This document shows, in pieces, positions 22,859 to 57,151 of a stretch of DNA of 64,000 nucleotides (position 1 is its first letter; each line of letters opens with the position of its first letter). A model generated the notes under the pieces. That model did not search any database and was not told the DNA's origin. It saw only the letters and a list, made by a program, of their open reading frames with translations. Source of the stretch: an uncultured delta proteobacterium (GTDB taxonomy: Bacteria; Desulfobacterota; Binatia; UBA9968); assembly GCA_963840855.1 (NCBI GenBank), contig CAWJBB010000053.1, forward strand, positions 1-64,000, in the 5' to 3' direction. The position numbers were made by a program, and so were the translations under genes.

Positions 22859-22893
22859 GAGATTTGACGATTGAGAATCGAGGATAGAAGATC
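22859..22893 (+). repeat. Heptamer tandem array (GAGGATA/GAAGATC family), one arm only
   Basis: GAGATTT GACGATT GAGAATC GAGGATA GAAGATC; same family as 29059-29116. Confidence 0.6.
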
Positions 22894-22912
22894 GACGGCC
22901 CGAAGTAACACG

Positions 22913-24265
22913 ATGGATTACGAAGCTCTCAAGCGACTGGACCACAAGTATCTCTGGCACCCGTTTACGCAGATGCAGGAATGGGTGGCCGAGGAGCCCT
23001 GCATCATCAGCGAAGGCGACGGGCATTATCTGATCGATGTTCACGGCCGAAAATATTTGGACGGCGTCTCGTCCCTCTGGTGCAATGTCCACGGCCATCG
23101 CAAGAAAGAAATCGACGACGCGGTTAAAGCACAGCTCGACCGCATCGCCCATTCGACCTTGCTCGGCTTGAGCCATGTGCCGGGCATTCAATTGGCCGAG
23201 AAGCTGATCGCGATCGCGCCCACGGGACTCAAGCGGGTTTTTTACTCCGACAACGGCGCCACGGCCGTCGAGATCGCGCTCAAAATGGCGGTGCAATATT
23301 GCCAGCTCAAGGGGACGAAGCAGCGGACGGGGATAGCGACTCTGGCGCAGTCCTACCACGGTGACACCGTGGGCTCCATGAGTATGGGCTACTCGGAAAC
23401 CTTTCACCGGTTCCACAAGAGCCTGCTGTTCCCGGTGCTGCGCATCACGCCGCCGCACCTGTTTCGCTATGGTCAGGGCATGAGCGAGAGCGCCGCGCTC
23501 GGTGCGGCGATGAACGAAGCGGAAGAAAAACTTGGGCAAAACAAAGACAGTCTGGCCGCGCTGGTCATGGAACCGCTCATGCAAGGCGCCGCGGGCATGT
23601 GGTCGCAGCCCGTCGAGTACGTCAAGGCAATGGCGGAACTATGCCGGCGCAGCGGAATCCTTTTCGTCCTCGATGAGGTCGCCACCGGCTTCGGCCGCAC
23701 CGGCAAGATGTTCGCGGCTGAACACGCCGGCGTGACGCCGGATATTCTCTGCCTTGCCAAGGGCATCACCGGCGGCTATCTGCCGCTGGCTGCGACAGTT
23801 ACGACGGAGGAGGTCTATGCGGCATTTCTCGGCGACTACGACGAGTTCAAAACTTTCTTTCATGGCCACACCTACACCGGCAATCCGCTCGGTTGCGCCG
23901 CGGCGCTGGCCAGCCTCGAACTGTTCGAACGGGAAAACATCATAGAAAAAATGCAGCCAAGGATCGCGTGCTTGCACAGACGGCTCGCCGGCGAGTTCTT
24001 GCGGTTGCCCCATGTAAGCGACGTGCGCCAATGGGGCTACATGATCGGCATTGAATTGGTCGAAGACAAGAAAAGCCTGAAGAATTACGCGACGGAGCGA
24101 AGGATCGGCCACAAGGTGATCGTCGCAGCGCGCAATCATGGGGTGATGATCCGCCCGCTAGGCGACGTGATCATACTGATGCCGCCTTTAACCATCACCG
24201 ATGACGAGCTCACGACGCTCTTGAACGTGGTTTATGACTGCATTCGCAGTGTTACGGAGGGTTAA
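22913..24265 (+). CDS. bioA: Adenosylmethionine-8-amino-7-oxononanoate aminotransferase
   Basis: LWHPFTQM, DGVSSLWCNVHGH, YHGDT, DEVATGFGRTG, AKGITGGYLPL, HGHTYTGNPL. Confidence 0.96.
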   Translation: MDYEALKRLDHKYLWHPFTQMQEWVAEEPCIISEGDGHYLIDVHGRKYLDGVSSLWCNVHGHRKKEIDDAVKAQLDRIAHSTLLGLSHVPGIQLAEKLIAIAPTGLKRVFYSDNGATAVEIALKMAVQYCQLKGTKQRTGIATLAQSYHGDTVGSMSMGYSETFHRFHKSLLFPVLRITPPHLFRYGQGMSESAALGAAMNEAEEKLGQNKDSLAALVMEPLMQGAAGMWSQPVEYVKAMAELCRRSGILFVLDEVATGFGRTGKMFAAEHAGVTPDILCLAKGITGGYLPLAATVTTEEVYAAFLGDYDEFKTFFHGHTYTGNPLGCAAALASLELFERENIIEKMQPRIACLHRRLAGEFLRLPHVSDVRQWGYMIGIELVEDKKSLKNYATERRIGHKVIVAARNHGVMIRPLGDVIILMPPLTITDDELTTLLNVVYDCIRSVTEG

Positions 24266-24290
24266 CCGATCTTTTGGGGCATGCGGTAGC

Positions 24291-24360
24291 TTCATTCTGA
24301 GGCCGCAGGCCGAAGAATCTCAATGCAGATCCTTCGTCGCTCTCGCTCCTCAGGATGACA
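24291..24360. repeat. REP-like palindromic element (TCATTCTGAG..GAAGAATCT / AGATCCTTCG..CTCAGGATGACA)
   Basis: Long imperfect inverted repeat between bioA and bioD. Confidence 0.7.
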
Positions 24361-24394
24361 AACCTCTGAAGGTTCGGAGGACTGTGGCTTCTCT

Positions 24395-25099
24395 ATGGGT
24401 CAAGGGATTTTCATCACCGGCACGGACACCGGCGTCGGCAAGACCTACGTGACATGCGGTCTCGCCGCGCTCCTCCGCGAGTCCGGTTATCGCGTCGGCG
24501 TCATGAAGCCGGCTGAAACCGGTTGCGACGGCGGCGATGGCAAACTGGTGCCGCAAGACGCGCTGGCGCTGAAGGCCGCGGCCGGGTGCGAATTTTCTCT
24601 GGAAAAAATCTGTCCCTATCAATTCCGCGAGCCGCTGGCGCCGAGCGTCGCCGCTGAGCGTGAAGGACGGCGCATCGACGTCGAACGGCTGATGGATATC
24701 TACCGCGAGATCAGCGCCGCCCACGATATTACCCTTGTCGAAGGCGCGGGCGGTTTGATGGTGCCGCTCGTGCCGAGCTACACCTACGCCGATTTCGCAA
24801 GTGTCTTGAAACTGCTAGTAATCGTCGTAGCGGCGAACAAGCTCGGTGCCATCAATCATTTGCTGTTGACGCTGGAGCATGCGAGCTGCAAGGATCTCGG
24901 AGTCCTCGGGTATGTTCTGAATCAGCTGGAGCCCGCGACGTCGCTGGCGGCGGAGACCAATCGCGAGGCACTCTTCTCGCTCACGGCTGTGCCATGTTTG
25001 GGCGAGCTGTCCTACGCTGGAGTCGCCGCGGGAGCAACGGCTGCGGTCGGTGCAGAATTGGATAGCAAGTTTCTCGCCGCGTTATTGCCGAGTCGGTAG
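24395..25099 (+). CDS. bioD: Dethiobiotin synthase
   Basis: FITGTDTGVGKT, MKPAETG, VEGAGGLMVP, LGAINH. Confidence 0.95.
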   Translation: MGQGIFITGTDTGVGKTYVTCGLAALLRESGYRVGVMKPAETGCDGGDGKLVPQDALALKAAAGCEFSLEKICPYQFREPLAPSVAAEREGRRIDVERLMDIYREISAAHDITLVEGAGGLMVPLVPSYTYADFASVLKLLVIVVAANKLGAINHLLLTLEHASCKDLGVLGYVLNQLEPATSLAAETNREALFSLTAVPCLGELSYAGVAAGATAAVGAELDSKFLAALLPSR

Positions 25100-25137
25100 A
25101 AGGCTATGCGGACGGGAAAGCCAATAGGAGATGTTTT

Positions 25138-25905
25138 GTGAGAAAACTCTTGATTCGACTGCGACAGCAGTTGGGCGCGACAAAGATTGCGCGCAGAGTA
25201 TATCGCCGGCTGCCGTCCAACAAGCGCTGCAAGGAATGTCTCGTGCCTTTCCTCGGATTGTTCTCCATTCCTTTCAGCCTGGTGCACATCAGGCCCTCGC
25301 GCAAGAATCCCAACCTGTGCACCCTTTGATATGAGCTGGCTCCTCCGGGCGGGGAGCTCTGCCATATCTCGGTGCTCTTCGTTGACGTGCGCGGCTTTAC
25401 GTCGCTGGCGGAGCGGCTGCCGCCCGCGGAAGTGGCGCAGCGTCTCAATCGCTTCTACGCTCTCGCCTCCAAGGCTATTTTTCACTATGACGGCACGCTG
25501 GACAAGCTCGTCGGCGATCAGGTCATGGCTTTTTTCGGCGCACCGCTCTACGCCGAGGATCACCCGGCCAGAGCGGTGCAAGTGGCGGTAAGAATTCTCG
25601 AAGGGGTCAAGGATCTTGCTCAGGGAGGCGGCCTGAAGGTCGGCGCCGGCATCGCCACGGGGGAGGCCTTTGTCGGCAACGTGGGGGAAGGTGCGGTGAC
25701 GGACTATACGGTGCTCGGAGATACAGTCAACGTGGCGGCGCGCCTGCAGGGCGCCGCCGCGGCCGGACAGATACTCGTCACCGAAGAAACCTATGCGCAG
25801 GTCGCGGCCAAGTTTCCCAATCTTCCGAGTCGCGATATCGAGCTGAAGGGGAAAAGCGAACCGGTCCGCGTCCGAGCGATTGTCGTGAATGGCATCCGAG
25901 ATTGA
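25138..25905 (+). CDS. Class III adenylate/guanylate cyclase with N-terminal CxxC..CxxU motif; in-frame TGA at 25327-25329 (candidate selenocysteine)
   Basis: ORFs 25138-25329 and 25372-25905 are in the same frame, separated only by one TGA: RCKECLVPF..RPSRKNPNLCTL*YELAPPGGELCHISVLFVDVRGFT..DKLVGD..GDTVNVAARL. RBS AGGAG precedes the GTG start. Confidence 0.8.
25328..25368 (+). promoter_or_regulatory. Candidate bacterial SECIS hairpin
   Basis: Upper stem GCUCCUC/GGGGAGC (25339-45/25351-57) with loop CGGGC starting 17 nt after the UGA; lower stem GAUAUG/CAUAUC (25328-33/25363-68). Confidence 0.55.
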
Positions 25906-25968: not shown

Positions 25969-26352
25969 TCAAGACTTCCGTTTTTCCTCGTTAATGAAGT
26001 TAAGAATTTTTTGGCGGAGATCTTCGTCGGCACGCGCAATCTCGAAGATCTGGCTGTAACTTTCTTCAGTGAGTCCTTCCTTCGTCAGAGCTCCTTGCAT
26101 CTTTGATACCGCTTCATTTTGAATTTCTTTGCCCTCTTCTGGATTCTTAGCTTCTTTCAGCCGAGGCTCATACACTTGCCGAATCTTCTCAACCTCCACG
26201 TAAACTTTTGCGAAAGACCTGAGTTGGCTCTCACTCACGCTCAGTTGCGGCTTGAGCGATTCTTGCGCCTGAACTTGTTTTGCGCATGGAAGGATGAGAA
26301 ATCCGGCGACAAAAATCGCTGCGACGGTCTTCAGACTCGCTATTTGCATCAC
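25969..26352 (-). CDS. Exported helical protein, DUF4168-like
   Basis: Signal peptide (..QVQAQ), VSESQLRSFAKVYVEVEKIRQ..EGLTEESYSQI..DEDLRQKI. Confidence 0.75.
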   Translation of the reverse strand: MMQIASLKTVAAIFVAGFLILPCAKQVQAQESLKPQLSVSESQLRSFAKVYVEVEKIRQVYEPRLKEAKNPEEGKEIQNEAVSKMQGALTKEGLTEESYSQIFEIARADEDLRQKILNFINEEKRKS

Positions 26353-26386
26353 CTACCTCCTTCTGGGAAAAGATTTCTTTTTTTGG

Positions 26387-26403
26387 AGCAATACACATGC
26401 CAA
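26387..26403 (-). promoter_or_regulatory. Sigma54 (-24/-12) promoter for the DUF4168 gene
   Basis: TTGGCATGTGTATTGCT matches TGGCAC-N5-TTGCW with correct spacing. Confidence 0.65.
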
Positions 26404-26568
26404 TCGTCTCCAGCATGATTATCCAACGTTATTAGATAGATCTTTGTGTCGCGGAGGATGTCGTTGAATGAGTTTCCCTGCAGCTCAGACCAGAAATCTC
26501 TAACAAGATGGGAGTTTGCTCAATTGCGCAAATCCGCAGCAGATTGCATATTGGGCGGGGTCGTTTCC

Positions 26569-27831
26569 TCAACGACGGCGCATTTCGGTTCCGAAACTTC
26601 TTAAGTTCGGCAGCATTATCCAGCAGACCAAGGTAAGCAGTCCGCCGACGGCGCAGCCGACGAGCAGTGCGCCGGGCGCTCCTATGAGCGCGGCGATGAA
26701 ACCCACTTCGGTTGCGCCCACCGCGCTCGCTCCTTGAGAGAACATGTTGAAAACGGCGAAAGCTCGGCCGCGAACTTGATCTGGAGTTAGAAGATGAAAG
26801 GTGGTCTGGCGCATAACCGCTTGCAGTGAATTCACGAGTCCCAGGACGCCGAGTAGAAAGACCGACAGCCAGAAGTTCGTCGATAGTGCGAAAATGCCCA
26901 CGGCCACCGCGTAAGTAAGAAACGACCAGAGTACCACAAGTCCTTTGTGCTCGACATCGCCGATCAGAAGCAGAAGGAAGGTTCCGATAATCCCGCCGAC
27001 CGCCGGAGCCGAGGACAATACACCGAAGCCCGCAGGTCCCACGGACAGAATATCTTTGGCAAAGATCGGCAACAGCGGCCGGTAACAGCCCGCGCCGGCG
27101 ACTATGAAGTCGAGCACGACCATCGCTAAGATAATGGGCTCTGAACCAAGAAACCGCAGGCCGCCTAAAAAACTGCCAACGGAAAATGCTTCCTTTTTGT
27201 GATCCGGTGCTGCCGATGTTTGCATGAGAATAATGCCGATTGCTGCGGGGAGATAGAATATTGCATTGAATAGATACGCGCTGCCGATATCCATCCATTC
27301 AAGACTGACGCCGGCTACCATAGGGCCGATGAAATGGGACGCTTGACCGACGCTGGAATTTAACGACACCGCATTGGTAAGATGGGAACGGGGTACGAGC
27401 TTCGAGATCAGCGCCATCCGAGCCGGATTGAGGACGATATTCAGCGCCGAAGTCAGAGCGGTGCCGACGAGGATATGCCAAACGCGAACGGCGCCGGTCA
27501 GGGTCAAGGTCCCCAGCGCGACGGCAACCAGCAAGTTTCCCGCCACAGTGATGAGGAGCAGCTTCTTGCGGTCGACAAAGTCCGCCAATGTCCCGCCGAA
27601 CAGTCCCAGGGCAAATAAAGGAATTCCTTGTGCTAAACCCGTCAGCCCAAGCTGAAAGGCGGAGCCTGATAATTCATAAACCTGATAGAGATTCTGGATC
27701 TGGCGCATGTGCTGTGCCGTCGTGGCAGAAAGCGCAACGAAAAAAAGCAGGCGGTAATCGCGGTACGCGAGAGATGCCCACGGCCGGAGCGCAAGGGCCG
27801 GTCCGCGGCTTGGTTGTGGATCAGCGGCCAT
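26569..27831 (-). CDS. MFS transporter (EntS/DHA3-like)
   Basis: 12 TM segments, GGTLADFVDRKKLL motif A, TPDQVRGRAF. Confidence 0.9.
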   Translation of the reverse strand: MAADPQPSRGPALALRPWASLAYRDYRLLFFVALSATTAQHMRQIQNLYQVYELSGSAFQLGLTGLAQGIPLFALGLFGGTLADFVDRKKLLLITVAGNLLVAVALGTLTLTGAVRVWHILVGTALTSALNIVLNPARMALISKLVPRSHLTNAVSLNSSVGQASHFIGPMVAGVSLEWMDIGSAYLFNAIFYLPAAIGIILMQTSAAPDHKKEAFSVGSFLGGLRFLGSEPIILAMVVLDFIVAGAGCYRPLLPIFAKDILSVGPAGFGVLSSAPAVGGIIGTFLLLLIGDVEHKGLVVLWSFLTYAVAVGIFALSTNFWLSVFLLGVLGLVNSLQAVMRQTTFHLLTPDQVRGRAFAVFNMFSQGASAVGATEVGFIAALIGAPGALLVGCAVGGLLTLVCWIMLPNLRSFGTEMRRR

Positions 27832-55468: not shown

Positions 55469-57151
55469 ATGAACGTCCGACACACGCGTTTGATCACGGG
55501 TTTCACCTTGCTTACCTACCTGGCGACTCATTTGCTCAATCACGCGCTTGGTTTGATCTCGCTGGAAGCCATGGAAATCGGGCGCCTATGGTTTCTGGCG
55601 TTTTGGCGAAACCCTCTGGCAACCGCGGCGCTCTATGCCTCGTTCCTCGTGCATTTTGGCCTGGCGCTCTGGTCGCTATACCAACGTCATCATTTGCGAA
55701 TGCCTCTCTGGGAAGCGCTCCAGCTCAGCCTCGGCCTTTGTATTCCGCTTTTACTTGCTGCGCACTTTGCCGGCACTCGGTTGGCGCACGGCTGGTATGG
55801 CGTCGAGGACAGCTACTCGAAAATCGTTCTTACCTTGTGGAAACTAAGCCCAATCCATGGTTGGAGACAGTCGATTCTCATCCTGATCGCCTGGATTCAT
55901 GGCTGCATCGGATTTCATTTCTGGTTGCGGCTGCGTCCCTGGTACTCCCGTTACGCGCAAACTTTTTTTGCCCTAGCATTGCTTCTGCCGGTGCTGGCCC
56001 TGCTTGGGTTTGCCCAAGCCGGCCGTGAGATTGATCACTTGATTGATCGAGATCCAGGTTGGATCGAACGGACAGAGCGAGCGTCTAAGTCTCTTGGCTC
56101 GGGACAAGGACAGGATCTGGTAACCGTTCGCGATGGAATCATATATGGGTTTTGGTTGTGTCTTGGCGGCGTGTGGATTGCACGGACCATCCGGCACACC
56201 TATCAGAGACGCCGGAGAATTCGGGTCATCTATCCGGGAAACCGCGAGGTCCAAGTGCCGCGCGGCTTCAGCGTTCTTGAAGCGAGCCGTTTCGCGCGCA
56301 TTGCCCACGCTTCCGTTTGCGGCGGCCGCGGCCGCTGCTCGACCTGCCGGGTGCGCGTGGTGCCCCCTATGTCCGCGTTGCCGCCGCCGAGCTCCGCGGA
56401 ACAAAGAGTCTTGCAGCGGGTGGGCGCGCCGCCCAATGTGCGGCTGGCTTGCCAGCTTCGCCCAACCGCGGATCTGTCGGTTATCCCGTTGTTGCCCGCG
56501 CATGCAGCGGCGAGCGACGGTTACGCGCAACCGGCTTATCTTGCCGGCCAGGAGCGCGCCATCGCCGTGTTGTTCGCAGACTTGCGGACCTTCACCGGTA
56601 TCGCGGAACGAAAACTGCCCTACGATCTGGTGTTTCTCTTGAACAGCTACTTTGACGCTGTGGGTAATGCGATCACAAGCGGCGGTGGCATCGTCGACAA
56701 ATTTATCGGCGATGGGGTTATGGCGCTGTTCGGAGTCGAGACCACTCTTGAAATGGCTTGCCGGCAAGCGTTAGCCGCGGCCCATGTCATGGTCAGAGAA
56801 GTCGAGGTTCTCAGCCAAAAGCTCGCGGTGGAGTTGCCTGTGCCACTGAAAATCGGTATCGGGATACATAGCGGCCCGGCGATTGTAGGGCGGATGGGCT
56901 TTGGCTCTAACGTTCACCTCACCGCCATCGGCGATACCGTCAATGTTGCAAGCCGCCTGCAAGATTTGACCAAGGAATATGGTTGCCAGCTGGTGATCTC
57001 GGAGCAGGTGGCAATGCACGCCGGTCTCGATCCATCGATCTTGCCGCGCCATGAGCTGACCGTCAGAAATCGAGTGGAGCCGCTGGCTATCTTCGTGGTC
57101 GACGAAATTGAATCAATCGTGAAAGAGTTGAGCGCCATGGATAAAAGATGA
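55469..57151 (+). CDS. CyaC-like adenylate cyclase (His-rich membrane domain + 2Fe-2S ferredoxin + class III cyclase)
   Basis: TM helices with His residues (THLLNH, VHF, AHF, WIHGCIGFH); HASVCGGRGRCSTCRV..RLACQ; LFADLRTFT, DKFIGD, GDTVNVASRL. Confidence 0.88.
   Translation: MNVRHTRLITGFTLLTYLATHLLNHALGLISLEAMEIGRLWFLAFWRNPLATAALYASFLVHFGLALWSLYQRHHLRMPLWEALQLSLGLCIPLLLAAHFAGTRLAHGWYGVEDSYSKIVLTLWKLSPIHGWRQSILILIAWIHGCIGFHFWLRLRPWYSRYAQTFFALALLLPVLALLGFAQAGREIDHLIDRDPGWIERTERASKSLGSGQGQDLVTVRDGIIYGFWLCLGGVWIARTIRHTYQRRRRIRVIYPGNREVQVPRGFSVLEASRFARIAHASVCGGRGRCSTCRVRVVPPMSALPPPSSAEQRVLQRVGAPPNVRLACQLRPTADLSVIPLLPAHAAASDGYAQPAYLAGQERAIAVLFADLRTFTGIAERKLPYDLVFLLNSYFDAVGNAITSGGGIVDKFIGDGVMALFGVETTLEMACRQALAAAHVMVREVEVLSQKLAVELPVPLKIGIGIHSGPAIVGRMGFGSNVHLTAIGDTVNVASRLQDLTKEYGCQLVISEQVAMHAGLDPSILPRHELTVRNRVEPLAIFVVDEIESIVKELSAMDKR

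Follow-up and report, generated by a model that had tools for sequence, protein, structure and literature searches.

The stretch of DNA analysed here (the window) comprises 64,000 nucleotides (nt), positions 1 to 64,000 of the forward strand of contig CAWJBB010000053.1 from an uncultured delta proteobacterium of the Binatia (assembly GCA_963840855.1). At positions 25138-25905 on the forward strand it contains a single frame of 255 codons whose sole internal break is a TGA at 25327-25329 (codon 64); the terminator of the same gene, a cyclase gene as detailed below, is likewise TGA (25903-25905). Open reading frame (ORF) calling with table 11 splits this region into two ORFs of 63 and 177 amino acids (aa). 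An earlier note on this DNA, made from the sequence alone, had taken the two ORFs for one frame broken by a single TGA, and our reading of the frame bears this out. The residue string also reads as given there, from RCKEC through the TGA to SVLFVDVRG: R-C31-K-E-C34, 26 mostly hydrophobic residues, S-R-K-N-P-N-L-C61-T-L-(TGA)-Y-E-L-A-P-P-G-G-E and later SVLFVDVRG. The 177-aa ORF starts with the GTG at 25372, which corresponds to residue 79, a position within the strand predicted as the first of the cyclase domain (residues 73-85), just as the note had stated that the downstream ORF begins in the middle of this strand. In our interpretation, the gene very probably encodes a soluble class III adenylate cyclase of 255 residues, in which UGA codon 64 would be decoded as selenocysteine (Sec) by SelB and tRNA-Sec with the help of a hairpin immediately downstream, acting as selenocysteine insertion sequence (SECIS). 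The features of the locus are as follows.

25126-25130, forward strand: Shine-Dalgarno-like AGGAG, 7 nt ahead of the GTG start at 25138 (read from the sequence)
25138-25905, forward strand: whole predicted selenoprotein adenylate cyclase gene, 255 residues, with GTG start, Sec codon 64 and TGA end (one frame with a single internal TGA; orthologue alignment across the TGA)
25210-25347, forward strand: N-terminal putative four-ligand module, approximately residues 25-70, C31-x-x-C34...S-R-K-N-P-x-x-C61-x-x-U64 (invariant positions in Cys forms; no Pfam family)
25327-25329, forward strand: UGA, probably read as selenocysteine, residue 64 (column conservation and Cys in homologues)
25339-25357, forward strand: probable SECIS core hairpin, stem 25339-25345/25351-25357 (7 bp here, 6 bp conserved) and loop CGGGC at 25346-25350 (fold, pairing and frozen synonymous sites)
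25328-25368, forward strand: lower helix GAUAUG (25328-25333)/CAUAUC (25363-25368) enclosing the core hairpin (fold of the window sequence; lineage-specific)
25363-25860, forward strand: class III nucleotidyl cyclase catalytic domain, residues 76-241 (PF00211, 82.8 bits; Foldseek and phmmer)

Conservation of the UGA codon and its cysteine counterparts

The read-through protein was used to search 61 genomes, the window's own and 60 relatives. All ten orthologues found (67-100% identity, several genera) contain exactly one in-frame TGA. It resides at the same column in ten out of ten, in the context ...N-P-x-L-C-T-L-(TGA)-Y-E-L-A-P-P-G-G-E..., and orthologues at 67-95% identity align through it, from residue 1-3 to residue 233-253. 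One of the ten, which also makes up one row of the alignments and the tree, stems from the unpublished genome G015, and no conclusion rests on it. When the scan was extended to one genome per species, TGA was present at the column in 32 of 32 loci bearing the module. The corresponding records name Candidatus Binatia, Dehalococcoidia/Chloroflexota and a few metagenome-assembled genomes (MAGs) with other labels; two of the loci have frame breaks elsewhere and two are of divergent form. A metagenome scan seeded with an alignment of Cys forms returned 80 loci, two of them without the motif. Among the 78 that show it, 75 have TGA at the column, two have TGT and one has TGC (the Cys codons are in L149, L151 and L226), and TAA or TAG occurs in none of the 110 loci (32 genome and 78 metagenome). 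The count of TGA against TGC and TGT proposed in the earlier note therefore comes out clearly for TGA. The same note had suggested checking reads at 25327-25329, and an independent soil DNA run yields a 523-nt contig that covers 25033-25554 and carries the TGA unchanged, its eight differences all being located elsewhere. Metatranscriptome contigs from two runs span 25066-25311 and 25601-25842; the TGA is outside both, and transcription is not demonstrated thereby.

Among the 120 best protein hits in public gene calls, 109 represent fragments of the C-terminal part, 169-219 aa in length and equivalent to 62-73% of the read-through query. Three of them that were read individually begin just past the column. 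The fragments are labelled 'adenylate cyclase'.

Cys is found at the column in ten full-length homologues that are 52-64% identical to the read-through product, one of which is named Chloroflexota by one source. The four positions of the C-x-x-C...C-x-x-C motif are invariant across the full-length Cys-form alignment. The TGA is thus located where a fourth Cys was to be expected, as the earlier note had it, and homologues with NPNLCxxC, which it had mentioned, do exist among these full-length Cys forms. A profile of the 69-residue module compared with 1.84 billion representative proteins gave 423 matches at E<=0.001. In the best 150 of these 423, the column is occupied by Cys in 120 cases and by another residue in 2, while 15 proteins end exactly there and 13 are without the motif as judged by our own pattern. 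These 15 result from gene callers ending the frame at the TGA and represent N-terminal fragments. Cys forms with 45 or more downstream residues number 84, and in 61 of them the cyclase strand-1 motif follows 15 or 17 residues past the fourth Cys. This marks the module as a domain dedicated to association with cyclases, with a short fixed connection to the strand carrying the first catalytic Asp. A word-based protein search limited to residues 22-76 returned 3 proteins only and is uninformative on other architectures. Look-alikes of the module in the Atlas form nameless clusters of 98 and 125 aa with Chloroflexota as the commonest phylum; our guess is that these are N-terminal fragments.

A phylogenetic tree was built with the column masked from 78 main-clade rows (28 near-identical Sec rows having been dropped) and 11 outgroup rows. 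The window gene falls into a clade of 54 rows, all of which are Sec forms. Among the remaining rows, of which the named ones belong to Chloroflexota, Sec and Cys forms interleave. At least three changes between Sec and Cys are forced by well-supported branches, and seven occur on the best tree.

The hairpin downstream of the UGA codon

The core stem is formed by GCUCCUC (25339-25345) pairing with GGGGAGC (25351-25357) and is closed by the loop CGGGC (25346-25350). The hairpin begins 10-11 nt past the UGA, its loop starts with the 17th nt after the UGA (16 nt spacing), and it is encoded within the codons for A-P-P-G-G-E. The minimum-energy fold of 42 nt consists of the core plus the lower helix (-21 kcal/mol), and the 19-nt core alone reaches -10.2 kcal/mol. 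The consensus for bacterial SECIS elements, as given in the excerpts of a 2026 review used here (PMC13188914), comprises a loop of 3-9 nt, a stem of 4-16 bp, G in the first two loop positions, a spacing of 16-37 nt and a minimum free energy of -7.5 or below. Applied by hand, these criteria are matched by a loop of 5 nt, a stem of 6-7 bp, an invariant G at loop position 2, a spacing of 16 nt and -10.2 kcal/mol. On loop, stem, G position, spacing and energy, the statement of the earlier note that the geometry suits a bacterial SECIS element therefore holds for the consensus in these excerpts (PMC13188914).

Across 74 distinct 48-nt stretches from Sec forms, each of the six core pairs can form in 72-74, the loop bases G21-G23 do not vary at all, and a seventh pair (G13-C31) occurs in 13. 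Classical covariation is nearly absent because the stem lies in the A-P-P-G-G-E codons. We preferred a per-column synonymous test over whole-region folding energy. In 97 distinct Sec-form genes, the codon is GCU at Ala+4 in 90 of 93 cases (entropy 0.24 bits), CCG at Pro+6 in 96 of 96, GGG at Gly+8 in 97 of 97 and GAG at Glu+9 in 93 of 93 (0 bits each). For the remaining columns whose amino acid is kept in at least 90% of the 97 genes, codon entropy amounts to 0.63-2.41 bits. The four synonymous sites in the hairpin are the only frozen ones in the gene. Their third positions are either paired (U15-A29, C17-G27, C14-G30) or provide the G at loop position 2, and the positions that do vary in the hairpin are the C/U opposite G26 and the last loop base (loop CGGGY). 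At most other Gly columns of Sec-form genes, GGG is among the rarer Gly codons. One exception exists outside the set of 97 genes, namely CCA at Pro+6 in locus L084. The three Cys forms for which DNA is available contain CCT/CCC (or another residue) and GGT/GGC at the frozen sites, and one of these three is 80-85% identical to Sec forms.

Of the hairpin described in the earlier note, the core stem and the CGGGC loop are conserved; the lower helix is not a feature of the family. GAUAUG/CAUAUC occurs in the window sequence and in a few of its close relatives. Over the 74 stretches, pairing of columns 5-7 with 37-39 is limited to 7-10, and the lower helix comes to 7.5 pairs versus 7.2 in synonymous shuffles. 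A free-register test for any lower helix gave a weak signal. We thus rejected it as a family trait. A covariation count on the full structure of the note brought no gain either (66.5% paired versus 66.4% in shuffles) and was likewise discarded.

A second clade with Sec forms provides an independent view of the same position. It is paralogous to the main clade (approximately 40% identity) and is represented by six loci in relatives (L041, L043, L145-L148) that have TGA at the same column in the context ...N-P-N-L-C-N-R-(TGA)-[E/D]-x-H-W-E-T-G-R-L-S-E..., with C-L-A-D as first knuckle. Here, the RNA forms a different hairpin of 8 bp, GGGAGACG / CGUCUCYC with the loop GGC or GGA, in six of six Sec forms, and its distance matches that in the main clade, GGGC being located at nt 21-24 from the U of the UGA in both. 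None of eight Cys relatives of the second clade (C-x-x-C...C-T-R-C-S-T-H-V-E-E-G-R-L) has this 8-bp hairpin. Two unrelated stems at one place, each occurring only together with TGA, are the strongest structural argument for a SECIS function.

Selenocysteine machinery

The window's genome is available as a 7.1-Mb assembly of 93 contigs that is 94% complete with 8% contamination. Its contig C1 carries selA (616 bits) and selD (C1:37592-38518, L019; 383 bits), the latter with an in-frame TGA of its own at G-U-A-A-K; a comparison of the cyclase hairpin with the selD SECIS of this genome showed no common loop motif. A selB gene resides on C1:38613-40500 in two frames (L009 and L010; at 208 and 193 bits, neither reaches the cut-off for the whole protein). 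Model residues 2-176 and 172-580 match adjoining stretches, and a one-base shift is situated in a short T-run near C1:39,976-39,989. Concerning the set of selA, selB, selC and selD that the earlier note wanted to see, selA and selD are therefore present, selB is present but spread over two frames, and selC was not found in the window's genome but does occur in five of five relatives. In these five, all tested relatives carrying the TGA gene and one of them of the same genus, tRNA-Sec scores 73-78 bits; ARAGORN assigned the anticodon tca in both relatives checked. The selA gene was detected in 57 of the 61 genomes, including all 10 with an orthologue. UBA1141, a Dehalococcoidia genome with a TGA cyclase gene, is listed among the ten bacteria richest in selenoproteins in BSepDB, according to the part of the database paper that we used (PMC13326102).

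Between selB and selA, C1 also contains a near-perfect inverted repeat of about 115 nt made up of GTTCAA-like units (L059, 12575-12691), which was noticed solely through a weak, chance similarity to a microRNA model.

The cyclase domain

The catalytic part is, as judged from its sequence, a complete class III adenylate cyclase. PF00211 matches residues 76-241 with 82.8 bits (cut-off 21.9), a search of the genome gives the same coordinates, and no other Pfam family matches the read-through protein at E<=1, the N-terminal module included. An AlphaFold2 model based on a 36-row alignment has a mean predicted local distance difference test (pLDDT) score of 87.6, with 91-92 for residues 21-60. Foldseek matched the catalytic part to 218 PDB chains at E<=0.001, each listed match being a class III cyclase, and placed CyaC 1wc1 on top (E 1.2e-17, template modelling (TM) score 0.81 by target, 35% identity). 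The best solved relative by phmmer is CyaB 3r5g (E 1.2e-27, residues 77-249). Residues D83, K123, D127, D189, N198, R202 and K239 align with CyaB and are invariant or nearly so in the family alignments. We take them to be the two metal-binding Asp, the Lys/Asp pair for adenine, the Asn and Arg stabilizing the transition state and the Lys contacting phosphate. Guanylate cyclase Cya2 has E and G at the positions of K and D in this protein. The Lys and Asp specificity residues therefore make cAMP the most likely product rather than cGMP; the earlier note had left both open, and its cAMP alternative is the one that these residues favour.

Three further observations concern cyclase domains related to that of the window gene. 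In the second Sec clade, Arg replaces the adenine-specifying Lys (V-D-R-L-L-G-D), and the Cys relatives of this clade (L039-L050) are proteins of approximately 370 aa with a hydrophobic C-terminal extension. In a divergent form on Chloroflexota MAG contigs (L093, L094), the TGA and the codons of the hairpin are retained. The first cyclase domain of this form has lost its F-x-D-x-x-G and G-D motifs, and a second cyclase-like domain comes after it, an arrangement that may be pseudo-heterodimeric. Finally, a paralogue in the window's genome (L004, C69:19996-20508) combines a double zinc ribbon with a cyclase domain and contains TGA codons near the C-terminus (...V-K-S-L-G-P-V-A-(TGA)-R-A-(TGA)-A-E-P-V-E-V-Y...); these look like a frame break and were rejected as Sec codons.

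The N-terminal module and a possible mechanism

The predicted module places C31-x-x-C34 in an irregular knuckle, followed by a helix (residues 41-48) and by C61-x-x-U64 at the start of a short helix (residues 62-66). The model of residues 1-70 contains only helices and single-residue bridges, and the module folded alone gives the same secondary structure with a core pLDDT of 87-90. Treble-clef zinc sites have their ligands arranged in this way, on a knuckle and on the initial turn of a helix. Asp83 is situated 19 residues past U64 and this spacing is fixed across the family. NCBIfam has no match to the N-terminal module of the window protein.

On this basis we suggest that Sec would be the fourth position of a C-x-x-C...C-x-x-U module directly before the first catalytic strand and that the four positions would form one Cys3Sec metal site, probably for zinc or iron. 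A single metal site is proposed because all four positions are invariant, because the second is replaced by Asp in the second Sec clade and because of the knuckle-plus-helix geometry; the Asp in C-L-A-D is compatible with a metal ligand and thus suggests one site rather than two disulfides. The selenium may speed the reaction of the site with oxidants or soft metals and make this reaction more reversible. Loss or change of the site would then be passed on to the adjoining strand via the fixed 19-residue link to Asp83 and so switch cAMP synthesis. If the gene is indeed decoded with Sec, we give such a Cys3Sec metal-site sensor a slightly better than even chance; what we infer within it is that metal is bound, which signal is sensed and in which direction regulation works. 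It is also conceivable, yet rather unlikely in our estimation, that the protein acts as a dual switch. The Cys3Sec sensor would then gate cAMP, and the full-length enzyme would be made only with Sec-tRNA, a 63-residue peptide resulting otherwise, such that cAMP would report selenium status. If true, abundant soil bacteria (Binatia and Dehalococcoidia) would possess a direct link between UGA recoding and second-messenger signalling.

Weighing the interpretations

Several results speak against the interpretation as a Sec-containing sensory cyclase. As regards decoding, no tRNA-Sec was found in the 94%-complete assembly of the window's genome, neither by ARAGORN (39 tRNAs) nor by BLAST with the genes of relatives, the best hit to Rfam RF01852 in this genome has 43 bits at a cut-off of 47, and no tRNA-Sec was found beside its sel genes. 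The frame shift in selB may stem from faulty assembly or reflect a genuine defect. The covariation test in TGA homologues that the earlier note had in mind is answered in part: the hairpin is constrained only in TGA forms, but true covariation is minimal (U-A to G-U in 2 of 74 sequences). P-P-G-G codons yield some hairpin regardless. The whole-region folding energy differs modestly from synonymous shuffles (mean z -1.0, window z -1.96, 24 of 97 under the 5% mark), because P-P-G-G codons pair in any case. As regards the sensor part, no conserved partner gene was found beside the cyclase gene in 22 loci (a bioD-like gene is upstream in 4 of 22 and a substrate-binding-protein-like ORF is present in 7 of 22). 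Fold searches with the module gave no significant match: the best Foldseek neighbour is an archaeal ribosomal protein chain with E 1.9, and VIA-align over 48,161 chains returned only the RNF4 RING domain (Z 2.1).

Could the TGA be a true stop, separating a 63-residue Cys-knuckle peptide from a truncated cyclase of 177 residues? The table 11 ORFs and the public calls with their 62-73% coverage in 109 of 120 best hits, three of which were seen to start past the column, are in line with this. The separate cyclase would, however, begin inside strand 1, at residue 79 of 73-85, amino-acid conservation continues in one frame through the TGA, and homologues carry Cys there within one polypeptide. Synonymous sites frozen into a hairpin only in TGA forms would be left without explanation, and neither TAA nor TAG was seen in 110 loci, so that we regard a true stop as most improbable. 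Nearly as improbable is a read-through of the UGA without selenium, be it by a near-cognate tRNA (Trp or Cys) or through a variant code. The missing tRNA-Sec and the split selB in the window's assembly would fit such a read-through, but the gene's own terminator is TGA, and the organism thus uses TGA as a stop; the residue at the column in homologues is Cys and not Trp or Gly, a SECIS-type hairpin is under selection, and relatives carrying the gene possess tRNA-Sec (anticodon UCA) as well as selA. An error in sequencing or assembly or a decaying pseudogene might be suspected in a metagenome-assembled genome with 8% estimated contamination and with other broken frames, in selB and the C69 cyclase. 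The same codon nevertheless recurs in over 100 loci that were assembled independently and come from two phyla, the independent run spans the TGA unchanged and the catalytic residues are intact. To the extent that computational evidence allows, both readings are excluded.

A further alternative accepts Sec insertion and concerns the mechanism only. C61-x-x-U64 would be a redox pair forming a reversible selenenylsulfide, with C31/C34 as resolving or structural residues. U64 in the first turn of the predicted helix 62-66 agrees with this, as such a location is typical of CxxC redox motifs. No thioredoxin-like chain is among the fold-search matches of the module, by which such a fold is not excluded. 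The CxxU context recurs in redox selenoproteins, namely AhpD-like, Prx-SUH and MduS in the excerpted table of the 2026 review (PMC13188914). We nevertheless consider a redox pair less likely than the Cys3Sec metal site, since all four positions are invariant across Cys forms only 52-64% identical, the second position turns to Asp and not to Ser or Ala in the second Sec clade, and the model shows a knuckle and a helix N-terminus without a thioredoxin-like strand-helix-strand unit, which is more like a small metal site.

Neighbouring genes

The ORF preceding the cyclase gene is bioD-like and ends at 25099. The upstream region 22871-25099 comprises a gene for a class III aminotransferase and one for a dethiobiotin-synthetase-like AAA_26 protein, pointing at the biotin pathway by likeness. 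Downstream (25969-27831), a DUF4168 protein and an MFS transporter are encoded on the opposite strand. This arrangement is common only to the closest relatives. A second class III cyclase domain is encoded in the window at 56555-57007 (56.8 bits) within an open frame of 565 aa, and the window's genome contains 19 PF00211 matches in all.

Significance and comparison with known systems

Almost all bacterial selenoproteins described to date are, to our knowledge, redox enzymes or transport-related proteins or deal with metals or metalloids. With Sec in the regulatory module of an adenylate cyclase, selenium biology would reach into signal transduction as well. The gene is common, being present with TGA in every close relative that has the family and on many soil metagenome contigs, and the natural Sec/Cys pair in a small four-ligand site would allow testing what selenium adds to a sensor. 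The family is systematically mis-annotated as two fragments, which affects annotation pipelines and selenoproteome counts for Binatia and Dehalococcoidia. The hairpin represents a compact and well-constrained example of a SECIS element that is located wholly within the A-P-P-G-G-E codons.

A full-text literature search yielded, as judged by the titles of the listed hits, no description of a Sec-containing cyclase, which may nevertheless be entered in the supplementary family list of BSepDB, and no publication on Binatia and selenocysteine. The word 'cyclase' is absent from the deep-Sep paper, from the main text of the BSepDB paper and from the 2026 review, whose table of prokaryotic selenoprotein families contains neither a cyclase nor any other second-messenger enzyme (PMC13188914), and NCBIfam has no model for a Sec cyclase family. 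The remark in the earlier note that no characterised selenoprotein cyclase was known is in accordance with this. Within the limits of the literature covered, with the BSepDB supplement outside them, the family would be new among selenoproteins and the first to involve an enzyme of second-messenger synthesis; its recoding machinery and its cyclase fold are both of known kinds.

The C-x-x-U context together with Cys homologues is shared with AhpD-like proteins, Prx-SUH, MduS and the 'dual CXXC motif small protein' NF041197 (PMC13188914). As far as described in the excerpts of this source, these families are redox enzymes, methyltransferases or small proteins and do not include a nucleotide cyclase; the window protein matches none of their NCBIfam models. 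A further parallel is offered by a redox enzyme with a Ni-Fe centre, in which, according to the part of the report considered here, Sec replaces one Cys in the second of two metal-holding CxxC motifs and Cys-only forms are the majority (PMC13582414). The window protein likewise has its putative Sec in the second CxxC. While the site in that enzyme is a catalytic Ni-Fe centre, the one in the window protein is a small module before a signalling enzyme and its metal binding is putative.

Closer by architecture are the zinc-ribbon cyclases of the same lineage (C69/L004, L047 and L048), which likewise have Cys-knuckle modules N-terminal to a class III cyclase domain. They feature tandem short ribbons (C-P-x-C...C-x-x-C with spacers of 10-14 residues), a long linker and no Sec, whereas the window protein has one knuckle pair separated by 26 largely hydrophobic residues and a short fixed spacing to strand 1. 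The same catalytic domain as in the window protein is found in CyaB from Pseudomonas aeruginosa (3r5g) and CyaC from Spirulina platensis (1wc0/1wc1), with which the motifs F-x-D-x-R-G-F-T, D-K-x-V-G-D, D-Y-T-x-x-G-x-x-V-N-x-A-x-R-L and K-G align. CyaB and CyaC are devoid of a Cys/Sec module, in contrast to the window protein with its 70-residue putative four-ligand module, which contains the predicted Sec and directly abuts strand 1.

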